A program made the translations under genes and the position numbers. A stretch of DNA of 64,000 nt, taken from an uncultured Gemmatimonadota bacterium. GTDB taxonomy: Bacteria; Gemmatimonadota; Gemmatimonadetes; Palauibacterales; Palauibacteraceae. Location of the stretch: the NCBI GenBank assembly GCA_964550085.1, contig CAZJXR010000001.1, positions 13,027 to 77,026 on the forward strand. Reading direction: 5' to 3'. Below are positions 3,076-14,874 of this stretch, in pieces; position 1 is the stretch's first letter; every line of letters begins with the position of its first letter. Under the pieces are notes generated by a model. It was not told the DNA's origin. It saw only the letters and a program-made list of their open reading frames with translations, and did no database searches.

Positions 3076-4345
3076 GATGGGCGCGCAATTCGGACTCGTC
3101 CGGCTGCTTCCGCTGCTCATGCTGGGGAGCTGCACCCCCTCCTCCGACTCGCCCCCGAGCGACCGAGCGGTCGACGATACGCCGGGGGCGGGGGTTCCGG
3201 AGGTGCTGACCGGGATCGACGCCCTGGCCGCCGCTGACTTCGCGCCGCTCCGCGGCCGGCGCGTTGGCCTGATCACCAACCACACCGGCATCGATCGCAC
3301 GGGGGCGAGCACCATCGATCGACTGCAGGAGGCGCCGGAGGTGCAACTGGTGGCGCTGTTCAGTCCCGAGCATGGCGTTCGGGGGCGGGCGCAGCCGGGG
3401 GAGACGGTGAGCGACGCCACCGACCCGCGCACCGGCCTGCCCATCCACTCGTTGTACGGTCGGACCCGCGAACCGACGCGGGCGATGCTGTCGGGCATCG
3501 ATGTGCTGGTGATCGACATCCAGGATGTCGGCGCCCGCTATTACACGTATGCGTGGACGATGGTGCTGGCCATGCGTGCCGCCGCGGAGCACGGGATTTC
3601 TTTCATGGTGCTTGATCGGCCGAACCCGCTCGGCGGCCGGGTCGTCCAGGGTAACGTGCTCGACAGCGCCTACGCGTCCTTGGTGGGATTGTATCCGGTG
3701 GCCATGCGGCACGGTCTCACGCTCGCCGAGCTGGCGCGGATGGTGAACGAGGAGCTCTCGCTCGGCCTCGATCTGCACCTCGAGCGCATGTCCGGCTGGC
3801 GGCGGGAGATGCGGTTCGACGCGACGGGTCTGCCGTGGGTCGCGCCGTCGCCCAACATGCCGTCCATCGCCAGCGCGCTGCACTACCCCGGAACCTGCCT
3901 GTTCGAGGGGACGAACCTCTCGGTCGGACGCGGAACGGAGCACCCGTTTCAGCAGATCGGTGCCGCTTGGCTCAACAACGTGGCTCTCATCGGGTGGCTT
4001 CAATTACAGGGCCTGAAGGGCGTTCGCTTCGACACCGTCTCTTTCACTCCCAGGGGGCCGGCGGATGGAAAGTTCGCTGGCGAGCGAGTGCGCGGCGTGC
4101 GCTTCATCGCCACCGACGCCGATGCGTACGACCCCACCGTGGTCGCGGTCGCCGTGCTGGCCGGGATTCACGCCCTGCACGCGGCGGAGCTGGAGTGGAT
4201 CGCGACCCACTTCGACCGTCTGGCCGGCACGGACCGGTTGCGGCTCGCAGTGCAGAGTGGCGCCGGCTGGCAGGAGATCGTGGCCGGTTGGGGCCCGGAG
4301 CTGGAGCGGTTCCGGGCGCTCCGCGACCGTTACCTTCTGTACTAG
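3076..4345 (+). CDS. namZ: DUF1343 family protein (YbbC/NamZ-like exo-beta-N-acetylmuramidase), lipoprotein
   Basis: In-frame ATG at 3076 inside track ORF 2177..4345. MGAQFGLVRLLPLLMLGSC signal/lipobox. Body (GLITNHTGIDRTG..., VLVIDIQDVGARYYTY, FMVLDRPNPLGG) matches the DUF1343 pattern. Lies next to nagZ, as in the B. subtilis ybbC-ybbD arrangement. Confidence 0.7.
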
Positions 4346-4387: not shown

Positions 4388-5623
4388 TCACTCGTCGCCG
4401 TCCGCACGACCGGTGTCGAGGAACCGTTCGATCCGTGACCAGTCGTGCTTCGCGTCCTCCATTCCCAGCCCGAGCAGCCGACCGATGTATCCTTCCTCGA
4501 ACAGCATGTAGCTGAGGAAATCCGCGTTCCGCCCTTCTTCCGTGCCCAACCCCTTCACGAAGTAGCGGAGGGTGCGTGGCAGCTTCTCCTGGTACTCGAG
4601 CGCCAGGCGCCCGAGGTCACGCGTCGGCCGCAGGACGAGCAGGTCGATCGGTCGGAGGGGGTAGTCGCGCCGCGCCGGCTCCGGAATGCGGGACAGGGTG
4701 TGGTTGATGCGGGTGAGCCGCGCTGCGTCCGCGTCGATGGTGTCGAGGAAGATCGTGTTAAGCATGAGGCCGATAATCTGCGCCGGCGGTGGGTAGCCGC
4801 GGCCTTGCACGCTTTTCGATTCGGCTACCGTTCGCGGGTAGCGCGAGGAGACGGCGAGGACGCGTCGGGCACCGAGGTGGATGGCTGGCGCCAGCGGGGC
4901 AGACTGCCGGATGCTGCCGTCACCGTAGTAGCGGCCCTCTACCTCGATCGCGGGGAAGAGGATCGGGATGGCGGCCGACGCCATCACGTGATCGACGGTG
5001 ATGTCGGCGCGCTCGGAGCAGCGGAGGGGTCGTTCCCACATCTCGATGGCGGCCGACCCGTCGACGAAGGTGGTGGTCCGCCCGCTGTCGTAGGCGGTGA
5101 CCGAGACGGCCAGCGCGTGCAGGCGCCCCGAGCGGATGTTGCGCTTGATACCCGCCGGGTCAATCGAGTCGCGGAGGAACCGGTACAGCGGCTCGGTGTT
5201 GACGAGGCTGCGGGCCCGGGGCGTCAGCTGCAGACCGCCCGAAACCAGGGTCAATCCCCACCGGATCGCGATTCGGAACATCGACACGGGATCGGAACGG
5301 AAGACCCGATCGGGCCGCAGGCTGCGCCAGTTGTCTTGGAGCGCCTCGATCGCGGTTCCAAAGCTGCCGTCGTGCGCGGCCAGGAAGGCGGCGTTGATTG
5401 CCCCTGCCGAGACGCCGGTCAGAATCGAGACACGCTGTTCCGGGCGTCGTTGGCCGATGTAGCTGAGAACGCCGACCTGGTAGGCGGCGCGGGCGCCGCC
5501 GCCCGACAGGGTGACGGCCAGTGGAGACTCGACATCAGGCGACACGTCGGCCAAGGGCGCCGTCGCGGCGCGAATCAGCCCGGCGTCCTCGCGCCGGTGC
5601 GGCTCAGAAGCGCACGGTGCCAC
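4388..5623 (-). CDS. Patatin-like phospholipase
   Basis: GGGARAAYQVG oxyanion motif and GVSAG (GxSxG) nucleophile elbow. 411 aa. Confidence 0.8.
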   Translation of the reverse strand: MAPCASEPHRREDAGLIRAATAPLADVSPDVESPLAVTLSGGGARAAYQVGVLSYIGQRRPEQRVSILTGVSAGAINAAFLAAHDGSFGTAIEALQDNWRSLRPDRVFRSDPVSMFRIAIRWGLTLVSGGLQLTPRARSLVNTEPLYRFLRDSIDPAGIKRNIRSGRLHALAVSVTAYDSGRTTTFVDGSAAIEMWERPLRCSERADITVDHVMASAAIPILFPAIEVEGRYYGDGSIRQSAPLAPAIHLGARRVLAVSSRYPRTVAESKSVQGRGYPPPAQIIGLMLNTIFLDTIDADAARLTRINHTLSRIPEPARRDYPLRPIDLLVLRPTRDLGRLALEYQEKLPRTLRYFVKGLGTEEGRNADFLSYMLFEEGYIGRLLGLGMEDAKHDWSRIERFLDTGRADGDE

Positions 5624-6093
5624 GAACGGCCGGCGGGAACCTCCAGCAGCCCGTGTCGGAGCTGCTCCAGCCGCTCGAGCGTGAGGTCGATCACCATCGT
5701 CTCCTCATCCAGGCGCCCTTCGGCCGCCAGGGCTCGGAACTCGGCTCGGGACGCGGTGCGAATCGCGCCACGCTCATCCCGATACCACACCGACGAGCTG
5801 TCGACGAGCGACACACCGAGTCGTGCCTCGATCTCCCGCAAGTGACCGACGAGAGCATCGATCGAGCAACCGGATGCCGCCGTCTCGCTTTCGTCCACCG
5901 CGATCAGCAGGACGCGGTGCAGCCACCAGTCGACGCCGGCGCGCAGTGCCCGAGAATGTGCCGTCCAATCGAGCAGAAAGCCGCTCACGCTGTCCAGCAG
6001 CTTCGCGGTCTCGGAGGGCTCGAGCGTACGATCGGCGGCGAAGCACCAGAGTCTAGCGCTATCGGGAAGATGTGCGAGCTTGTGCAGGCTCAT
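5575..6093 (-). CDS. Hypothetical protein (start uncertain: ATG at 6093 or 6171)
   Basis: ORF 5575..6171. No recognisable motifs, no Walker A. Overlaps the patatin 5' end by ~49 nt. Confidence 0.35.
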   Translation of the reverse strand: MSLHKLAHLPDSARLWCFAADRTLEPSETAKLLDSVSGFLLDWTAHSRALRAGVDWWLHRVLLIAVDESETAASGCSIDALVGHLREIEARLGVSLVDSSSVWYRDERGAIRTASRAEFRALAAEGRLDEETMVIDLTLERLEQLRHGLLEVPAGRSWHRALLSRTGARTPG

Positions 6094-6223
6094 GGTCGCC
6101 GTGCGGAGGCAGAGTAGAGCGAATCGACGCGCAGCGGGGTCTGCGCTCCCCGCGCGCGCTGCATGGTCCAATGTACCGGACGCTCATCGCCGAGGTCCAG
6201 CGGCTTTCGGAAATCGGCAGCTG

Positions 6224-7432
<1,209 letters not shown>

Positions 7433-7440
7433 CGGTCGTC

Positions 7441-8886
7441 CTAGCTCCGGTTCATCCCGGGCACGGCGCTCCGTTCCTGGAACCGTTCCAGCAGTTCCCG
7501 CTGCTGGACGAGCGACATCGGGACCTGGATCACTTCGTCACCCTCGGCGAGGCCTGCCACGATCTCGGTGTACTCCCAGTCGCTGAGCCCGATCAGCACC
7601 GGCTTCAGCGTCAGTCCTCCGGTCTCGGTCTCCGTGAACACGAACGCCGGCTTCGGCCGCCCGGGGTTGGTTCGCTCGGCGGCGGCCGCCGCCTCCCGCT
7701 GCCCGCGCATGTAGTCGATCAGCCGCTGTCGGTCGGCGGCCGACAGACCCTGGAAGAACTCCATCCGCTCTTCTCGGGACATGCCCTGCATGCGCTGGGC
7801 CTGGGCGATGAGAGGGTCGGCAGACTCCGCCGGGACGGCGTCTTCGGTCCCATCGGCCGCGGCCTCGCCGTTCGCGGCTCCGGCGCCGGCTTCCGCCTTC
7901 GCTTCGACGCGCGCCTCCAGCAGGCCTCGGTCCAGGCCGAGCGCGTCGACCAGCGCCTGCGCCTCGTCCACGGTCTTCAGCCCGGCGTTCTTGAGCGCCA
8001 GCACCTCGTCCCGCTCGCCGACGATGACCTCGACGTCCGCGTTCATGCCGGGTCGCAGCAGGTCGTCCTCGTTCCGGATCCGGGTGAGCACGGCGAACAT
8101 GGTCACGTTCTGCTCGACCACCGCCTGCGGCTCCACCTTCAACACGGCGCCCCGGAACTCCCGGTCGGGGTACGCCTCCACCTCGATGCTCGCCGGGAGG
8201 CCCGCCGCGATCCGACCGATGTCGGTCTCGTCGACCAGGGTCCGCACCTGCACTTCGGTCAGATCGGCCATCCGGAGGATCACCGTGCCTCCGGTGACCT
8301 CGCGGGTGCCGGTGATCACCTGACCCTCCTCGACATTCTTCTCGACGATCGTGCCGCTGAGCGGTGCGCGCACCACCACGTCGTTCAGCCGATCACGGGC
8401 CAGCTCCAGGTTGGTCTCCGCCTTCACCAGGGCCGCCTTGGCGTTGGCGTCCTCCAGGATCGCGGTCTCGAGCTCGGCATCCGAGACGATCGCCGAGTCG
8501 TGCAGCGCGGTCGTGCGCTGCAACTGCCTCTGGCTCACCATGTAGCGCGCCTCGGCCACATCGAGATCGGCTTCCGCCTGCTCGAAGGCGTTGCGGACAT
8601 CGCGCGGATCGATTCGGACCAGAATCTCGTCCTTTTCAACGTAATCCCCGAGCTCGACCGGCATCTCCAGGATCTCACCCGATGCCTGCGACTTGACCTC
8701 GATCACCTTGATCGGCTCGATCGTGCCGGTGGCCGCCACGCTCGACACGATCCGCCGCACCTCGACGACGGTCTTCTGCAACCCGGTGGCGGCCTCGGTG
8801 GCCTCCCCGCTCCCGCACGCGAGCAGGGCGGGGGCGACCGCCAGGAGCGCGAGCTGGATGGCGTGTTTCTTCATGCGATGACTCAT
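7441..8886 (-). CDS. Efflux transporter periplasmic adaptor subunit (HlyD/MacA family membrane fusion protein), lipoprotein
   Basis: Signal MKKHAIQLALLAVAPALLACGS, coiled-coil hairpin region and beta-barrel/lipoyl-like segments. Placed 9 nt upstream of the permease. Confidence 0.8.
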   Translation of the reverse strand: MSHRMKKHAIQLALLAVAPALLACGSGEATEAATGLQKTVVEVRRIVSSVAATGTIEPIKVIEVKSQASGEILEMPVELGDYVEKDEILVRIDPRDVRNAFEQAEADLDVAEARYMVSQRQLQRTTALHDSAIVSDAELETAILEDANAKAALVKAETNLELARDRLNDVVVRAPLSGTIVEKNVEEGQVITGTREVTGGTVILRMADLTEVQVRTLVDETDIGRIAAGLPASIEVEAYPDREFRGAVLKVEPQAVVEQNVTMFAVLTRIRNEDDLLRPGMNADVEVIVGERDEVLALKNAGLKTVDEAQALVDALGLDRGLLEARVEAKAEAGAGAANGEAAADGTEDAVPAESADPLIAQAQRMQGMSREERMEFFQGLSAADRQRLIDYMRGQREAAAAAERTNPGRPKPAFVFTETETGGLTLKPVLIGLSDWEYTEIVAGLAEGDEVIQVPMSLVQQRELLERFQERSAVPGMNRS

Positions 8887-9097
8887 CCGTCTTGGGATTC
8901 GGATCACGGAGGATCCACGCGCCTTCGAGCGCGCGCCGTCCAATGCGCCCGATCCGCCTGCTCGAATCTAACGACAAACACCGGACAGGGCCCGATGGTT
9001 AGACCCCGCCCGGTGTCGTCGCATTCCCTGCCTGCTGACTACCGCCGTCCCCGCGCGGCTGTTCCCGCCGTTCGACCCGCTGGCCTGCCGGTTGGGT

Positions 9098-10393
9098 TCA
9101 ATCGCTTCCGAGTTCGGCCCCGATGAGCGCTTCGAGGGCGGCGATCGCCACCGGGTAGGAGAAGCGCTGGCGGACCAGCTCGACCTCGGACTCCGAGACG
9201 GCAATCTGTGCCGTCTGCAGATCGAGGATGGTGGCCAGCCCCAGCCGGTAGCGCTCCGCCACCACCCGCAGGTCCTCGCGGCTCAGCTCGACGCTGTTCT
9301 CGGCCAGCTCGATGCTGGCCAGCGCCACCTGCACCTCGTCGTACGCGCTCGCCACATCGCGCAGGAGCTGAAGGTACACCTGACGTTCCTGGGCGGTAGC
9401 GGCGTCGGCCTGCGAGCGCGCCGTGTATACGGCCGTCTCGCGCTGAAAACCGTTGAAGAGCGGGTAGTTGCCGGACAGCGCAATGCTCCAGCTCCGGTTC
9501 TCCGGAGGAAAGTCGCTCGACGCCCACGCCCAGCCGCCGCTGAAGCGCAGGCTGGGGATGTAGGACGACTTGGCGCTGGCCACGTTGGCGGCCGCCGCTT
9601 CGGCCGACGTTTCGGCGCTTACCAGCGAGGGTGCAGAACGGGTTGCCATCGACAACAGCTCCGCGCGCTCGTAGGGGAACGGAACGAGATCGAGCGTCGA
9701 TTCCGGTACCGGCTCCACCCGACGGTCGACCCCCACCACGACGGCCAGGTCGTACGTTGCGTTGCGCGCGTCGTTCGCCGCGCGCAGCAGACCCAGGTTG
9801 GCGTTGTTGAGGTCCACCTGGGACCGGAGCAGATCGGAACGGGTGGCGCGCCCGAGCTCGAGCTGCTGACGGACGAACTCGAGCTGGTTCTCCTGCCGCT
9901 GCACTCGGTCCTCTTCCACTTCGACCAGCTCGCGGGCCGCGATCGCCGCGTAGTACGCGCTCTTGACCTGGAAGATCGTGTTGTACTCGGTGCCGCGGTA
10001 GTCGGCCTCGCGTGCCTCGACCGTGAGCCGGGCGCTCTTCACGTCCGACACCCGGCGCAGTCCGGTGATGATGTCGTAGCTGGCGCCGAGCTGGAGCGTG
10101 TACGAGGTGGTCGCGAACGCCTGGCCGGTCGGGTCGATTCGCCCCGTGCTGGCGTTCGAGTACCCGTAGCCGAGGCTGACCGACGGCAGCCAGGCTCCGT
10201 AGCTGTCGAGACGGTTGTACTCGGCGATCTGGACGTCGGCGCGCGACTGTTCCAGACCGGGGTTGTTGCGGAGCGCGAGCCGGATCGCTTCCTCCAGCGT
10301 GATCTGCATCGCGGGCCGCTCTTCCTGCTGCTGTGCCGGAACGGGGGCCGCGCCCATGAACAGCGCGGCGGCCGCCAATGCCACCCCTCTCAT
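9098..10393 (-). CDS. TolC-family outer-membrane efflux protein
   Basis: Two repeated TolC-like alpha/beta segments, and signal peptide MRGVALAAAALFMGAAPVPAQQ after a GGAGG RBS. The alternative upstream ATG at 10474 would overlap the preceding gene by ATGA. Confidence 0.8.
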   Translation of the reverse strand: MRGVALAAAALFMGAAPVPAQQQEERPAMQITLEEAIRLALRNNPGLEQSRADVQIAEYNRLDSYGAWLPSVSLGYGYSNASTGRIDPTGQAFATTSYTLQLGASYDIITGLRRVSDVKSARLTVEAREADYRGTEYNTIFQVKSAYYAAIAARELVEVEEDRVQRQENQLEFVRQQLELGRATRSDLLRSQVDLNNANLGLLRAANDARNATYDLAVVVGVDRRVEPVPESTLDLVPFPYERAELLSMATRSAPSLVSAETSAEAAAANVASAKSSYIPSLRFSGGWAWASSDFPPENRSWSIALSGNYPLFNGFQRETAVYTARSQADAATAQERQVYLQLLRDVASAYDEVQVALASIELAENSVELSREDLRVVAERYRLGLATILDLQTAQIAVSESEVELVRQRFSYPVAIAALEALIGAELGSD

Positions 10394-10470
10394 CGGCCTT
10401 TTCCTCCTGCCATGCGGTTGTGTGGTCAGCGGGCGGTGTTTTGCGGCGCGGCGGACCATCGGGGCCCGCC

Positions 10471-10866
10471 TCAATCGGTCGGCTGGGCTCCGAACGCGCC
10501 CGCGTCGTACTGCTCCCGCAGCAGATTACGATACTGCTCGACCTGCTCCGGTGTCAGCACCGACTCGATCTCCAGTCGCACGGAATCGACCAGCGTACTG
10601 TAGCGAGGACGAAACTCGTCCCACATTTGTTTCCACGATGCCCGAAATCGGGTAAGCATTCCCTCGATCTCGGTTCGCTGCTCGGCGCTGAGGTTCAGGT
10701 CGTCGGCGAATCGCTCGATGGTGAAGCCGGACTCGGTCGTCTCCCCGCCACCGTCCTCGGCCGGCGCCAGGTTCAGCCACGCGCGTTCGATCGCGATGCC
10801 GCCCGCGCCGCCCGCGATGAACGTCAACACGAGCAGAGCGGTGAGTTTGATCCGGGCTGTCGTCAT
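10471..10866 (-). CDS. Periplasmic Spy/CpxP/ZraP-like (LTXXQ-motif, heavy-metal-sensor family) protein
   Basis: 131 aa. Single N-terminal TM/signal, then LSAEQRTEIEGML and LTPEQVEQYRNLL LTXXQ-type helices. Confidence 0.55.
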   Translation of the reverse strand: MTTARIKLTALLVLTFIAGGAGGIAIERAWLNLAPAEDGGGETTESGFTIERFADDLNLSAEQRTEIEGMLTRFRASWKQMWDEFRPRYSTLVDSVRLEIESVLTPEQVEQYRNLLREQYDAGAFGAQPTD

Positions 10867-11249
10867 TCGTTAGGGTCTTCGCGGGCCACGGCGGCCGATA
10901 GGATATCGTCGATGCCGGGCTCGGTGGCGGCGATGAGGAGCGCCGGCGGGCCGTCGAGTTGGGAGGGCTGGAGGAGCTGCTCCACGGTCGGTGGCCGCTC
11001 CGCGAGTTCGACCGGTGCCGATGCACGCTGGGCGAGCGCCGCGAAGGTGAGCGCCAGGGCGGCGGCGAGCGGAAGCAAGAGCGTCGTCCACCGGTCGGCG
11101 ACCGACAGCCAGCTGCCCGCCTCGCGGGCCCGGAGCACGGCGGCCGCCTCGGCGACGATGCGCCGTCGGAGCCGCTCGCGGGTGAGCGGGTCCGGCCTCA
11201 GCGGCTGTAGCCACGCGGGCCAGCTATCGGGATTTCGAGTGTGCTTCAT
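10863..11249 (-). CDS. Putative anti-sigma factor (single-pass membrane protein)
   Basis: 128 aa. Cytoplasmic N-terminal region, one TM (LLLPLAAALALTFAALA), 4-nt overlaps with the sigma gene upstream and the LTXXQ gene downstream. Confidence 0.45.
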   Translation of the reverse strand: MKHTRNPDSWPAWLQPLRPDPLTRERLRRRIVAEAAAVLRAREAGSWLSVADRWTTLLLPLAAALALTFAALAQRASAPVELAERPPTVEQLLQPSQLDGPPALLIAATEPGIDDILSAAVAREDPNE

Positions 11250-11833
11250 GTGCCTTTTTCTGTCTCCGGTCCGAGGATCGCCCGCAGGGCTCGGCGTCCG
11301 TGGTGGACGTGAGCCCGTGACGTGCCCTCGGCGATGTCGAGGATCTCGGCCACCTGCTGGTGACTGTACCCCTCCAAATCATACAGCGTTACGGCCAGTC
11401 GTTGCATCTCTGGCAGCTGAGCCAGCGCCGCGAGCACGCTTTCCCGGGCCAGCCGGCGCTCCAATTCGCGCTGCGGATTCGTGCTTCCCGACGCGCTGCG
11501 CGGCAGCGGATCGTGGTCGCGCAGCGCCTCTCGCCGCAACAGGTTCAGGCAGGTGCTTCGCAGCACCCGATAAAACCAGGGTCCGAACGGGCTGCCCGGC
11601 CGCAGCTGATCGATGCGCTCCAGGGCCCGAATGAACGCGCTCTGTAGCGCGTCCTCGGCGTCCTGCTGCTGCCGGAGAATAGACAGGGCGACCGCATAAC
11701 CGGGGTCCATGTATCGCTCGACCAGACGAGAAAAGGCGGACTGGTCGCCAGCCCGCACGGCATCCACGACCGCCGCCTCGTCCGCGAACCTCGCCGCGCG
11801 GCGTTCTTCATCTTCAGGAGTGGCTGCCGGCAA
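11246..11833 (-). CDS. ECF-subfamily RNA polymerase sigma-70 factor (start reassigned to TTG 11833)
   Basis: Sigma-70 region 2 (FSRLVERYMDPGYAVALSILRQQQDAEDALQSAFIRAL) and region 4 (YDLEGYSHQQVAEILDIAEGTSRAHVHHGRRAL). TTG at 11833 has a GGGGAG RBS 7 nt upstream and leaves room for an ECF promoter. Track ORF extends to 11962. Confidence 0.75.
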   Translation of the reverse strand: MPAATPEDEERRAARFADEAAVVDAVRAGDQSAFSRLVERYMDPGYAVALSILRQQQDAEDALQSAFIRALERIDQLRPGSPFGPWFYRVLRSTCLNLLRREALRDHDPLPRSASGSTNPQRELERRLARESVLAALAQLPEMQRLAVTLYDLEGYSHQQVAEILDIAEGTSRAHVHHGRRALRAILGPETEKGT

Positions 11834-11889
11834 GACGTCACTCCCCGAACCTTGCGCCCGGCTATGCGGCTGGGCACCCTTGTCTATGC

Positions 11890-11925
11890 GCACCCTTTTA
11901 ACACGCCTGTAACCGCGGACGTTGA
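11890..11925 (-). promoter_or_regulatory. ECF-type promoter candidate for sigma gene 11833..11246: reverse-strand AACGTC N15 CGTGTTAA
   Basis: Reverse strand reads tcAACGTCcgcggttacaggCGTGTTAAaaggg. AAC and CGT are the hallmark -35/-10 nucleotides of ECF promoters. Confidence 0.4.
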
Positions 11926-11953
11926 GCGGCAGCCGACCCGCCAGCGTGGCACT

Positions 11954-11981
11954 TAACGTCATCCCGGCCGGAGGCGTCTAA
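11954..11981 (+). promoter_or_regulatory. ECF-type promoter candidate for sigma gene 12059..12652: AACGTC N17 CGTCTAA
   Basis: ttAACGTCatcccggccggaggCGTCTAAggg, ~50 nt upstream of the second ECF sigma gene. The motif mirrors the divergent promoter. Confidence 0.45.
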
Positions 11982-12058
11982 GGGTCGACGCCGCGGCACG
12001 TCGCGACGGGTCCCGACGCTCATATGGCTCGGAGATCCGGTCGCGCGGGACCGGACCT

Positions 12059-12652
12059 GTGCGAGATCCGATGCTAGACGAGCGACGTGCCGTACAGCAA
12101 GCGCGGAGGGGAGACGATTCTGCATGGCGAACTCTCTACGAGAGTTACGCGGATTTCGTTTTCCGGCTCGCCGTGCGGAGGCTCGGCGACCGGGACGCCG
12201 CGCTGGATGTCGTGCAGGAGACCTTCCTGCGGGCGGCAACCGCCATCCGGGACTTTCGAGGGGATGCGACGTTCAAGAGCTGGATCGCCCGGATCGCGAT
12301 CAACGAGACGACGAGCCACCTGCGACGGGAAGCCCGACGCAAGCGGGCGCCCCTCGACACGGTCGAGCGAACGGCGGACAGCGCCGAGCGGCCGGACGAT
12401 CGGGCGGTGACGCACGACCTGGCGGCGCGGGCGCTGGCGTATATCCGGCGTCTGCCGGATCAACAGCGGGATGTGTTGCTGTTGCGCACGACGGAGGGCC
12501 TGTCGTACGCGGAGATTGCCAACATCCTCGGCTCGACCGAGGGGTCAGTGCGGGTCAGCTATCATCACGGGTTGCAGAAATTGAAGCGACATTTCGGTAG
12601 CACGAGCGAGCGGCGATCGCCGTCGCGTGCGGAAGGCGGAAACGCGCGATGA
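12059..12652 (+). CDS. ECF-subfamily RNA polymerase sigma-70 factor
   Basis: Region 2 (YESYADFVFRLAVRRLGDRDAALDVVQETFLRA) and region 4 (LLLRTTEGLSYAEIANILGSTEGSVRVSYHHGLQKL). Confidence 0.85.
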   Translation: MRDPMLDERRAVQQARRGDDSAWRTLYESYADFVFRLAVRRLGDRDAALDVVQETFLRAATAIRDFRGDATFKSWIARIAINETTSHLRREARRKRAPLDTVERTADSAERPDDRAVTHDLAARALAYIRRLPDQQRDVLLLRTTEGLSYAEIANILGSTEGSVRVSYHHGLQKLKRHFGSTSERRSPSRAEGGNAR

Positions 12653-13230
12653 GCATGAAACGCAGCGGGGAGCGACCCGCTGATCGGGAGCACGTCTCCG
12701 ATCAACTGCCCGACTATGTCCGGGGGGAGTTGACGAGCGAACAACGGACGCGCATCGAGGCACACTTGCGGGTCTGTCGTCCATGTGCCGAGGAACTCGA
12801 TCTGCTCGCGATGCTGGAGGAGGCGCCGCCCCCCGTCTTGACGGCCGAGGAGCGGGAGGAGCTCTTCTCTCCACTCGCGATCCGTCCCGAGCGTCGGCGC
12901 GCCGACTGGCGCAGCGGCCTGTGGAAGGCGGCCGCTGCGATCGCAGTGGTCGCCACCGGTTACGGCGCGTGGCAGGTATACCTCGCGGGCGGGGCTGTCG
13001 GGGAAGGGTGGGGGGTGGCGGCAGTCCTCCAGGCGTGGGAAGACGATGTGCGGGAGATCGATCCATCGTACGCGGAGGCGAGCCTGCTGTTGACCTATCT
13101 GGATCCCGGGGCGTCCGAGCTCGACTACGCGGAGGACGTCGACTTCGAGGCACAGATGACGGGGCTGCCGGACGACCTGGATGTCGGCGTGCTGGACGGC
13201 ATCGATGTGCCGTGGGAGGAGGGAAGATGA
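12649..13230 (+). CDS. Anti-sigma factor with zf-HC2 zinc finger, single TM
   Basis: HLRVCRPCAEEL (HxxxCxxC), TM WKAAAAIAVVATGYGAW, ATGA overlap with the sigma gene. Confidence 0.75.
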   Translation: MSMKRSGERPADREHVSDQLPDYVRGELTSEQRTRIEAHLRVCRPCAEELDLLAMLEEAPPPVLTAEEREELFSPLAIRPERRRADWRSGLWKAAAAIAVVATGYGAWQVYLAGGAVGEGWGVAAVLQAWEDDVREIDPSYAEASLLLTYLDPGASELDYAEDVDFEAQMTGLPDDLDVGVLDGIDVPWEEGR

Positions 13231-13922
13231 GCGGACCGATGGGCGGGTCGAGGACCCGGGGCCGGAGGTGGATCGGCGTACTGCTCGGACTGGCGCTCGT
13301 CAGCGGAGCGCCGCTCCGGGCTCAGGAAACGGAACCGGGCGAGGCGACCCCGGACGACCGCTACGACACCGGTCTCATGAGTCTCACCGAGGTCCAGCAG
13401 CGGCAGCTCCAGGAGCTCGAGCGCCGCTTTCTGGACCGGGTGTCCGAGGCGTTGGAGCTGAGCGAGGAACAGCGGCAGCGTCTGGAGGCCACGTTGCGCG
13501 AGAGCCGGGCCCAGCGCCTCGAGCTGGTGCAGCAGCGGACCGTCCTGCGGGAGGAGCTGGACCTTCTGATCGCCGAGCCGAATCCGGATCAGGAGACGAT
13601 CCAGCAGCTGCTGGATCGGCGCTCGACGCTCGACGAGCGGCAGGTACAGATCGGCCGGACGGAGGAGGAACGGCTGGGCGAATTCATGTCGCCGGTGCAG
13701 ACGGCACGCTTCATGTACCTCCGTCAGAAGATGGTACAGGCACTGCGTGATCGCGTCCGTCAGGTCGCACGACCGCAGGCGGGTGAGCGGCCGCGGCGGC
13801 CGGCGGCATCCGATCGGCCGCGGGTTACCGACGAAGCGGGCGACCGCGCTCTGCGACCCGATGGTGGCTCCGCCACCCCGGTACGGGACCGGGCCGCAAC
13901 CGGGAGCCCGGATCGGCCGTGA
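13227..13922 (+). CDS. Periplasmic Spy/CpxP-like LTXXQ-motif protein
   Basis: In-frame ATG at 13227 (ATGA overlap with the anti-sigma stop). Signal RRWIGVLLGLALVSGAPLRAQ. Repeated helices LTEVQQRQLQELERRF and LSEEQRQRLEATL. Confidence 0.55.
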   Translation: MSGPMGGSRTRGRRWIGVLLGLALVSGAPLRAQETEPGEATPDDRYDTGLMSLTEVQQRQLQELERRFLDRVSEALELSEEQRQRLEATLRESRAQRLELVQQRTVLREELDLLIAEPNPDQETIQQLLDRRSTLDERQVQIGRTEEERLGEFMSPVQTARFMYLRQKMVQALRDRVRQVARPQAGERPRRPAASDRPRVTDEAGDRALRPDGGSATPVRDRAATGSPDRP

Positions 13923-13965
13923 TCGGGGCGGCGTTGACCGGACAGCCCGAGAGCTCGGCCCTTCG

Positions 13966-14874
13966 GTGACAGGCCCGGCGTCGACCGGAGAAGGCGAATT
14001 CCCACCGCTTGGCGCGCACGTCTCGATCGCCGGCGGCATCAGCGAAGCGCCGGCGCGCGCCGTGCAGATCGGTGCCACCACCCTTCAGATCTTTACCAAA
14101 CAGCCGCAGCGCTGGGCGGAACCGACTCTCGCCGACGACGAGGTCGCCGCCTTCACCCGGGCCGTTCGGGAGGCAGATCTCCACCCCATCGCGGTGCACG
14201 ACAGCTACCTGATCAACCTCGCGTCGCGCGACCCGGCACTGTTCAAACGCTCGCGGCGTGCGTTCGAGGCCGAACTCGAGCGCTGCCAGCAGCTGGGCGC
14301 CGATTTTCTCGTCACCCATCCCGGCAACGCCACCGGCGGCGATCGCCAGGCCGCGCTTCGGCAGAATGGGACGGCGATTGCAGCGGCGCTCGATCGCCAC
14401 CCCGGCCGCTCGCGGGTGCTGATCGAGACCACTGCCGGCAGTGGGTCCGCCCTCGGATGGCGCTTCGAAGAGCTCGCCGGCCTGATCGACCGGATCGGGA
14501 TCCGTCACCGGGACAGAATCGGAGTGTGCTTCGATACCGCACACGTGTTCGCGGCCGGTTACGACCTTCGAGACGATTTCGATGGAGTCATCGCCGAGTT
14601 CGATTCCGTCGTCGGCCTGGACCGACTGGCTCTCTTTCACGTGAACGACTCACGGGCGGCACGTGGCAGTCGGGTCGATCGACACGCCGACATCGGGAAG
14701 GGATGCCTCGGCAAGCCGGCGTTCGCGGCCCTCATGCAGCATGCGGCGCTGCGCGCGATTCCCCGCATCATCGAGACGCCGAAGGGAAGTGACGCGACGG
14801 CGGCCGATCGCCGAAACCTCGACCGTCTGCGCTCTCTGGGCTCAGCGGCGCTGCGCACCTATCCGGCACGGTAG
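13966..14874 (+). CDS. nfo: Deoxyribonuclease IV (endonuclease IV, AP endonuclease family 2)
   Basis: GAHVSIAGGISEAPARAVQIGATTLQIFTKQPQRW closely mirrors the Nfo N-terminus. HD/E metal-binding motifs are present. Start set to GTG 13966; the track ORF begins at 13747, overlapping the upstream gene. Confidence 0.75.
   Translation: MTGPASTGEGEFPPLGAHVSIAGGISEAPARAVQIGATTLQIFTKQPQRWAEPTLADDEVAAFTRAVREADLHPIAVHDSYLINLASRDPALFKRSRRAFEAELERCQQLGADFLVTHPGNATGGDRQAALRQNGTAIAAALDRHPGRSRVLIETTAGSGSALGWRFEELAGLIDRIGIRHRDRIGVCFDTAHVFAAGYDLRDDFDGVIAEFDSVVGLDRLALFHVNDSRAARGSRVDRHADIGKGCLGKPAFAALMQHAALRAIPRIIETPKGSDATAADRRNLDRLRSLGSAALRTYPAR

Follow-up and report, generated by a model that had tools for sequence, protein, structure and literature searches.

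Operons in which an extracytoplasmic function (ECF) sigma factor is encoded together with a one-helix anti-sigma factor and an LTXXQ or heavy-metal-resistance protein are already known from the groups ECF111, ECF281, ECF290 and ECF291, and several groups with this layout are described in the ECF reclassification (Casas-Pastor et al. 2021; PMC7826278; supplement 10.1101/2019.12.11.873521). In ECF281 a zinc-finger anti-sigma factor is found at position +1 and, within subgroup ECF281s2, a heavy-metal-resistance protein at +2, the -10 element being GTCTAA (PMC7826278; 10.1101/2019.12.11.873521). In ECF111 a one-helix anti-sigma factor at +1 is followed at +2 by an LTXXQ or heavy-metal-resistance protein, and ECF291 includes CnrH, which is accompanied by CnrY, CnrX and an efflux pump (PMC7826278; 10.1101/2019.12.11.873521). 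For the sigma/anti-sigma/spy operon cirY-cirZ-spy of Phocaeicola vulgatus, autoregulation was shown experimentally in a 2026 study; the genome contains a second operon of this composition and different envelope stresses were proposed for the two (PMC13114119). The locus described here lies within a stretch of 64,000 nucleotides (nt), referred to as the window, on contig CAZJXR010000001.1 of an uncultured Gemmatimonadota bacterium (assembly GCA_964550085.1). It carries two such modules head to head, one on the reverse strand (rSig, rX, rY) and one on the forward strand (fSig, fAnti, fY). The window has a G+C content of about 68%, and its genes have their closest relatives without exception in Gemmatimonadota metagenome-assembled genomes.

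With a probability of roughly 65%, we read the locus as two independent, self-activating ECF modules which diverge from separate back-to-back promoters, the reverse module being in addition a relay to an efflux pump. The features concerned are listed below with positions in the window; model cut-offs were 42.9 bits for TIGR02937, 22.2 for Pfam zf-HC2 (PF13490), 24.3 for LTXXQ (PF07813) and 29.2 for Metal_resist (PF13801).

11246..11833, reverse strand: rSig, ECF sigma factor of 195 amino acids with a TTG start (Sigma70_r2 and r4_2; TIGR02937, 98.3 bits)
10863..11249, reverse strand: rX, putative short membrane anti-sigma factor of 128 amino acids (position, ATGA coupling, topology)
10471..10866, reverse strand: rY, predicted membrane-anchored periplasmic Spy/CpxP-like (LTXXQ) protein of 131 amino acids (anchor, motifs, orthologue profile)
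11897..11927, reverse strand: predicted promoter of the rSig operon (-35 CAACG, 11924..11920; -10 CGTGTTA, 11905..11899)
11953..11981, forward strand: predicted promoter of the fSig operon (-35 TTAAC, 11953..11957; -10 CGTCTAA, 11975..11981)
12071..12652, forward strand: fSig, ECF sigma factor of 193 amino acids, in an open reading frame (ORF) opening at GTG 12059 (Sigma70_r2 and r4_2; TIGR02937, 111.4 bits)
12649..13230, forward strand: fAnti, zinc-finger anti-sigma factor of 193 amino acids (zf-HC2, 39.4 bits)
13227..13922, forward strand: fY, apparently secreted Metal_resist (PF13801, ZraP/CpxP-like) protein of 231 amino acids with a Pro/Arg-rich tail (32.0 bits)

The promoters were evaluated by comparison with 39 orthologous loci from species-representative genomes, three assembly contigs and eight metagenome contigs with fSig orthologues. 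An earlier interpretation of this DNA, made without database searches and called here the sequence-only reading, had located AAC-N15-CGT at 11923..11903 (reverse strand) and AAC-N17-CGT at 11955..11977 (forward strand), and both sites are present as stated. From composition alone 0.27 AAC/CGT matches are expected in the 225-nt spacer and two are seen, which is mildly unusual (P about 0.03); the promoters are convincing because they are conserved across orthologues and not because of composition statistics. Upstream of rSig, AACG-N14-CGT followed by GTT recurs exactly in 28 loci, and the loci without an exact match possess the same element by weight matrix, with TGT or GGT replacing CGT, which gives a conserved core (T/G)CAAC(G/A)-N15-GTGTT. 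When 43 loci (337 kb, both strands) were scanned with a position-weight matrix at a threshold of at least 13 bits, a site of this type 50-200 nt upstream of rSig was the top match in 40 of 41 orthologous loci. A single extra site was detected, scoring 15.5 bits and lying between the genes for the TolC-like factor and the adaptor of the pump (L022:7919). The promoter in the window reaches 31.7 bits, the second-best site in the 64 kb 12.2 bits.

For the fSig operon the consensus TTAAC-N17-CGTC(T)AA has one exact match in the window. All 15 occurrences of the pattern TTAAC-N17-C(G/A)TC in 374 kb, searched on both strands, are situated upstream of fSig and point in the direction of that gene; 14 belong to fSig loci and one to a decayed locus. 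Both predicted promoters are accordingly to be seen as genuine conserved signals; each stands directly upstream of its own sigma gene across the orthologous loci, a position which fits the ECF autoregulation suggested by the sequence-only reading. The leader of the fSig operon comprises about 80-90 nt (11982..12070) and contains, a few bases past the -10 element, a block (T)CGACG(C/G) which is conserved in the orthologues and has no Rfam match; in the whole window no Rfam family was matched. On two metagenome contigs that possess only the forward module (L088, ~480-610, and L089, ~3270-3400), a unit of about 31 nt (...GGGCAACNCGGCNCCGAG...) is repeated in tandem three to four times in the interval from the TolC start to the forward promoter.

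AACGTC...GGCGT(C/G)T(T/A)A is common to both promoters of the window, a likeness from which a mirrored pair with possible cross-recognition had been suggested. Each sigma factor would then act on the promoter of the other as well, or the two would be linked in a cascade, the head-to-head pair acting as one integrated switch of the pump. Such a switch would also agree with four metagenome loci in which the forward module stands alone beside the same pump, so that the modules may be interchangeable there. Read on the plus strand, moreover, the rSig promoter (11898..11923) is TTAAC-N17-CGTT, one mismatch from the fSig pattern; this likeness probably arose by chance, as the orthologues do not conserve TTAAC at that position. 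The conserved positions of the two promoters differ and the spacing from AAC to CGT is 15 in one and 17 in the other, an offset of 2 nt, which speaks for recognition of the two promoters separately and against cross-recognition. A second site of either type was not found before the other operon in any locus, and in about 31 species the reverse module is present and the forward module missing. In relatives with both modules the two -35 elements lie anywhere from 5 to 60 bp apart, so that the mirrored geometry is not conserved. Positive evidence for cross-recognition was not obtained and a common switch appears quite improbable; the resemblance within the window is apparently in part incidental, and the two promoters look insulated from each other.

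The start codons were re-examined on the same basis. The TTG start of rSig at 11833, already chosen in the sequence-only reading, is preceded by a Shine-Dalgarno sequence GGGGAG; both TTG and GGGGAG recur in the two close relatives that were looked at, and about 193 amino acids is the length of most orthologues. A start at ATG 11962 was rejected, since the extension would hold the conserved promoter and the orthologues measure about 193 amino acids. In a public record a 99%-identical sigma factor is annotated with 238 amino acids, corresponding to ATG 11962 here (43-residue extension, 11834..11962, reverse strand), and this database start is probably wrong. An exact protein look-up in the assemblies yielded no record for the 238-amino-acid sigma factor or for fAnti. 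The start of fSig had been set at GTG 12059. Its orthologues all begin with MLDE or MLDD, ATGCTAGACGA at ATG 12071 is conserved in all of them, and ATG 12071 is the more likely start.

That the locus encodes two divergent ECF sigma factors was confirmed by Sigma70_r2 and r4_2 matches in both proteins and by TIGR02937 scores of 98 and 111 bits. The overlaps of 4 nt proposed within the trios are likewise real: ATGA occurs at all four internal junctions (rSig/rX, rX/rY, fSig/fAnti and fAnti/fY), which suggests translational coupling. The two trios had further been called paralogous, which the comparison does not bear out. rSig and fSig share 34% identity, an ordinary level for ECF sigma factors of different groups, and among soil metagenome sigma factors fSig has closer relatives (about 40%) than rSig. 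No similarity was detected between rX and fAnti. Between rY and fY there is none by BLAST, and hhalign gives a weak link over the two LTXXQ-like regions (probability 40%, E = 3e-4). The distributions differ as well. As far as sequence comparison allows, the modules share one design without being copies of each other, i.e., they are analogous rather than paralogous.

Comparison of the flanking sequences shows how unequally the two modules are distributed. Orthologues of rSig with 58-88% identity are present in about 40 Gemmatimonadota genomes, and the order rSig-rX-rY-TolC, mostly continued by the adaptor and MacB-type permease genes, is conserved in about 40 species. Orthologues of fSig (58-74% identity) were found in only about 14 loci, the next relatives having at most 41%. 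On the 3' side of fY lie an endonuclease IV-type gene (nfo) and then etfBA, and three states of the slot that separates these genes from the pump were seen. In about 31 species it holds the reverse module alone. Both modules are present in the window and in loci L001, L005, L022, L023, L034, L042, L085-L087 and L091. On the metagenome contigs L088, L089, L090 and L092 the forward module stands by itself, directly divergent from the genes for TolC, membrane-fusion protein and MacB, and rSig-rX-rY is absent. By this distribution the forward module would be an accessory element of some relatives only, and the reverse module the conserved one of the lineage. A more far-reaching proposal is that the two are exchangeable input devices for one pump, so that genomes with both would integrate two envelope signals, possibly with partial promoter cross-talk; we consider this improbable.

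Two loci are peculiar. At L008:3793-4810 a forward-type promoter is kept and fSig is missing, and an ORF fuses the periplasmic tail of the anti-sigma factor with an fY-like protein, which looks like a decayed forward module. A contig of 3.4 kb binned as Akkermansiaceae (L017, CAXMRU010000177.1) carries etfB, rSig and rX as typical for Gemmatimonadota, with the same promoter, and is likely a mis-binned contig.

The middle gene of the reverse module, rX, stands at +1 of rSig in 40 loci and encodes a protein with a single hydrophobic helix (residues 55-73). In an AlphaFold2 model with a mean predicted local distance difference test (pLDDT) score of 67.5, a short (12-17) and a long (21-43) cytoplasmic helix precede a membrane helix (47-77), and the short periplasmic tail is mostly disordered. 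The N-terminus, with the conserved motif WPxWLxxLRPDxxTRxRxRR, is better conserved than the tail. From position, coupling to rSig and topology we infer that rX is an anti-sigma factor, as had been proposed. Neither Pfam nor the PDB gave a match to rX, a dozen relatives were found in total, all without a family name, and rX is a candidate for a new family of short anti-sigma factors.

The assignment of fAnti is based on a domain match. The zf-HC2 finger seen in the sequence-only reading was confirmed with 39.4 bits (cut-off 22.2) and is absent from the reverse middle gene; the motif AHLRVCRPC follows the pattern H-x3-C-x2-C, and an NCBIfam anti-sigma model is matched with E = 9e-9, below the cut-off of the model. 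An Ala-rich hydrophobic stretch (WKAAAAIAVVATGYGAWQVYL, approximately residues 90-112) stays under the threshold for 19-residue hydropathy, and fAnti is probably a single-pass membrane protein. The two anti-sigma factors are of different types, and to this extent the earlier suggestion of different input signals is retained as probable. Its interpretation of the finger as a sign of redox or zinc input is not, as many zinc-finger (ZAS family) anti-sigma factors use zinc structurally and zf-HC2 alone does not indicate redox or zinc sensing.

The third genes of both modules encode proteins with LTXXQ-type motifs. In rY an N-terminal hydrophobic anchor (residues 8-26) is kept in all orthologues, and the motifs LSAEQ and LTPEQ correspond to LTxEQ and LTPEQ in the orthologues. 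A profile of the rY orthologues matches the E. coli Spy chains 5wo1 and 3oeo in the PDB over both motif regions (E = 3e-5). Pfam LTXXQ is matched weakly by 24 of 26 orthologues (best E 3.8e-5), rY of the window alone remaining below the cut-off (17.0 versus 24.3 bits). The N-terminus of fY resembles a signal peptide (RRWIGVLLGLALVSGAPLRAQE), and its LTXXQ-like motifs are LSEEQ and MSPVQ, the latter being LTPLQ in orthologues. Single-sequence PDB searches with rY and fY gave only noise, and the fY profile only coiled-coil noise.

Whether rY and fY would take part in sensing or serve as outputs only may be weighed on these properties. As mere outputs they would be stress-induced chaperones like E. 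coli Spy, and the anti-sigma factors alone would sense, e.g., by regulated proteolysis. The cleavable-looking signal peptide of fY, which is probably soluble, is in line with this, as is the absence of His and Cys from both proteins, which leaves no obvious ligand site. The anchor found in all rY orthologues would be needless for a bulk chaperone, though, and is typical of the membrane-bound partners in ECF290 and of CnrX in ECF291, and the short and, in the model, mostly disordered tail of rX would make a poor stand-alone sensor. CpxP, which belongs to the same superfamily as rY and fY, is moreover a signalling inhibitor. We therefore hold a role as outputs only to be possible but rather unlikely, and a part of rY and fY in sensing is presumed in the following.

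According to the sequence-only reading the reverse unit ended at 10471. Genes on the same strand continue beyond this point and encode an efflux pump:

9098..10393, reverse strand: TolC-like outer-membrane factor (Pfam OEP, 220 bits; TIGR01844, 181 bits)
ORF 7441..8943, reverse strand: periplasmic membrane-fusion (adaptor) protein (HlyD_D23, HlyD_3; TIGR01730, 160 bits; MacA, 98 bits), its true start probably lying some codons inside the ORF
6224..7432, reverse strand: MacB-type ATP-binding cassette (ABC) permease without fused ATPase (Pfam MacB_PCD, 161 bits; FtsX, 77 bits)

An overlap of rY with the TolC gene had been reported, which depends on a TTG codon; a start at ATG 10393, just behind an AGGAGG sequence, is more credible, and with it a gap of 77 nt separates the two genes. 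This gap contains neither a terminator-like site nor a promoter of the rSig type, and a scan of 10300..14200 for sigma-70 promoters and terminators found nothing relevant between the genes of either operon. The TolC gene follows rY on the 3' side in nearly every locus for which the flank is available, the adaptor gene is syntenic in most loci and the permease gene is syntenic as well. Because no internal promoter or terminator was detected, we infer that the pump genes are co-transcribed, the reverse operon probably reading on into TolC, adaptor and MacB-type permease. Past the pump, on the reverse strand, a conserved protein of 198 amino acids without Pfam match (5575..6171) and a patatin-like phospholipase (4388..5623) are encoded; both stay syntenic even in the loci L006, L019 and L024, which have no adaptor and permease genes.

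The pump also bears on the question whether the locus confers heavy-metal resistance in the manner of Cnr, with rY and/or fY sensing a periplasmic metal that the pump exports. The name "Heavy-metal resistance" of the Pfam family of fY points in this direction, ECF281, ECF290 and ECF291 have been proposed to be metal-related, and CnrYXH controls an efflux pump. Yet His and Cys are lacking in both rY and fY, and there is no His, Cys or Met among the conserved columns of either alignment; the pump is of the MacB/FtsX type with a MacA-like adaptor and not a resistance-nodulation-division (RND) system such as CzcCBA or CnrCBA, and gene order and anti-sigma factor are unlike cnrYXH. Metal resistance is in our view very improbable.

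For the preferred reading of two independent modules the following sequence of events is proposed. The promoter YCAACR-N15-GTGTT would drive rSig, rX, rY and subsequently the pump genes, and rX would hold rSig at the membrane through cytoplasmic helices of about 45 residues. Anchored beside rX in the periplasm, rY would modulate it until an envelope signal lifts the rX/rY brake; such a signal might be a substrate of the pump or envelope proteins that misfold or aggregate. Free rSig would then raise the expression of its own operon and so provide more regulator, periplasmic chaperone-like protein and pump. In the forward module, with its ECF281-like architecture, the promoter TTAAC-N17-CGTCTAA would drive fSig, the zinc-finger membrane anti-sigma factor and the secreted Metal_resist/CpxP-like protein.

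A number of results weigh against this scheme. Pfam searches for rX (26 orthologues) retrieved no anti-sigma family at E <= 1, and the rX profile matched no anti-sigma chain in the PDB. An alignment with cyanobacterial ECF111 anti-sigma factors is collinear (WLxxLRPD opposite FLRQxRPxPP, the membrane helix, VEELV opposite LEAFL) and not significant, with a probability of 4%. The Spy-like fold of rY is predicted from sequence profiles, and the family of rY is more weakly assigned than those of the sigma factors, fAnti and fY; the AlphaFold2 model predicts helices with a mediocre pLDDT of 61, and Foldseek gave no match with E < 1 in the PDB. With respect to the pump, outer-membrane factor, adaptor and a permease with MacB_PCD and FtsX represent parts of a MacAB-TolC type, but the ATPase is neither fused nor adjacent, and a simple motif scan revealed no ORF with Walker A and LSGGQ motifs in the 64-kb window. 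Co-transcription of the pump is deduced from missing signals by means of simple scanners. Finally, the adaptor and permease genes are missing and TolC is kept in the three loci L006, L019 and L024, so that the unit does not necessarily include the pump.

The negative domain searches would suit an rX that is no anti-sigma factor at all but a small membrane protein of some unrelated kind, rSig then being under a different control; the size of its cytoplasmic part, only about 45 residues, could be cited in the same sense. Against this stand the +1 position with ATGA coupling in 40 loci and an N-in single-pass topology, which fits an anti-sigma factor and has precedents in class II CnrY and in the one-helix ECF290 anti-sigma factors lacking a Pfam domain. 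We judge an unrelated rX to be distinctly unlikely and keep to rX as the putative anti-sigma factor of rSig.

For the Gemmatimonadota, in which there is almost no experimental genetics, the locus now provides a concrete predicted core envelope-stress regulon with a defined promoter consensus. Of modest interest are the unnamed rX family, the connection of a Spy/CpxP-like protein with a MacB-type pump and, at one locus, what looks like an exchange of the two modules. The two distinct promoters, with -10 elements GTGTT and GTCTAA and spacings of 15 and 17, furthermore represent material for the study of ECF promoter specificity.

In a crude BLAST comparison with nine example sequences of ECF groups, both sigma factors show 25-33% identity to all of them, the best example for fSig being ECF281s4 with a marginal lead (31% identity, 84 bits). 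The forward module shares its layout with ECF281, i.e., at +1 a zinc-finger anti-sigma factor with a single membrane helix and at +2 a PF13801 protein. Agreement of the promoter motifs with an ECF group consensus was found in part: the -10 element GTCTAA of ECF281 matches CGTCTAA of the fSig promoter, whereas its -35 element GGAA(C/G)TT does not match the conserved TTAAC. The comparison with ECF group motifs, named in the sequence-only reading as its own check, thus speaks for that reading in the case of the forward promoter. Gemmatimonadetes are not among the phyla published for ECF281.

The reverse module has the layout of ECF290 and ECF111, with a sigma factor, a short one-helix protein without Pfam domain and a membrane-anchored LTXXQ-like protein. 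The published motifs of these groups, ACGG...CGT for ECF290 and TTGAACCT...GTCTAAA for ECF111, are unlike the rSig promoter CAACR...GTGTT, to which the actinobacterial ECF51 motif GCAACCG-Xn-GCGTGTC is nearest. In contrast to the reverse module, the descriptions of ECF290 and ECF111 include no downstream TolC/MacB pump. An adjacent tripartite pump governed by the sigma factor is found in the CnrYXH-CnrCBA system of Cupriavidus metallidurans, which resembles the reverse module also in its ECF sigma factor, short membrane anti-sigma factor and anchored periplasmic helical partner. There, however, the order is cnrY-cnrX-cnrH, the sigma gene coming first in the reverse module, and the pump is of the RND type instead of a MacB-type ABC pump with a MacA-like adaptor. 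Moreover, rX has no CnrY Pfam match and rY no His/Cys ligands, and unlike in cnr no link to metals is evident.

The operons of P. vulgatus are similar in that genes for an ECF sigma factor, an anti-sigma factor and a Spy-like chaperone, co-transcribed in cirY-cirZ-spy, are combined twice in one genome. They belong to another phylum, are neither adjacent nor divergent and are followed by cell-wall hydrolase-like genes and not by a pump. With Spy and CpxP of E. coli, rY shares the two LTXXQ-type motifs and a predicted helical, periplasmic character; it differs from them by its membrane anchor and by ECF control rather than two-component control. Taken as a whole, the region is not a new kind of system and belongs to a type of regulatory operon that is already catalogued.

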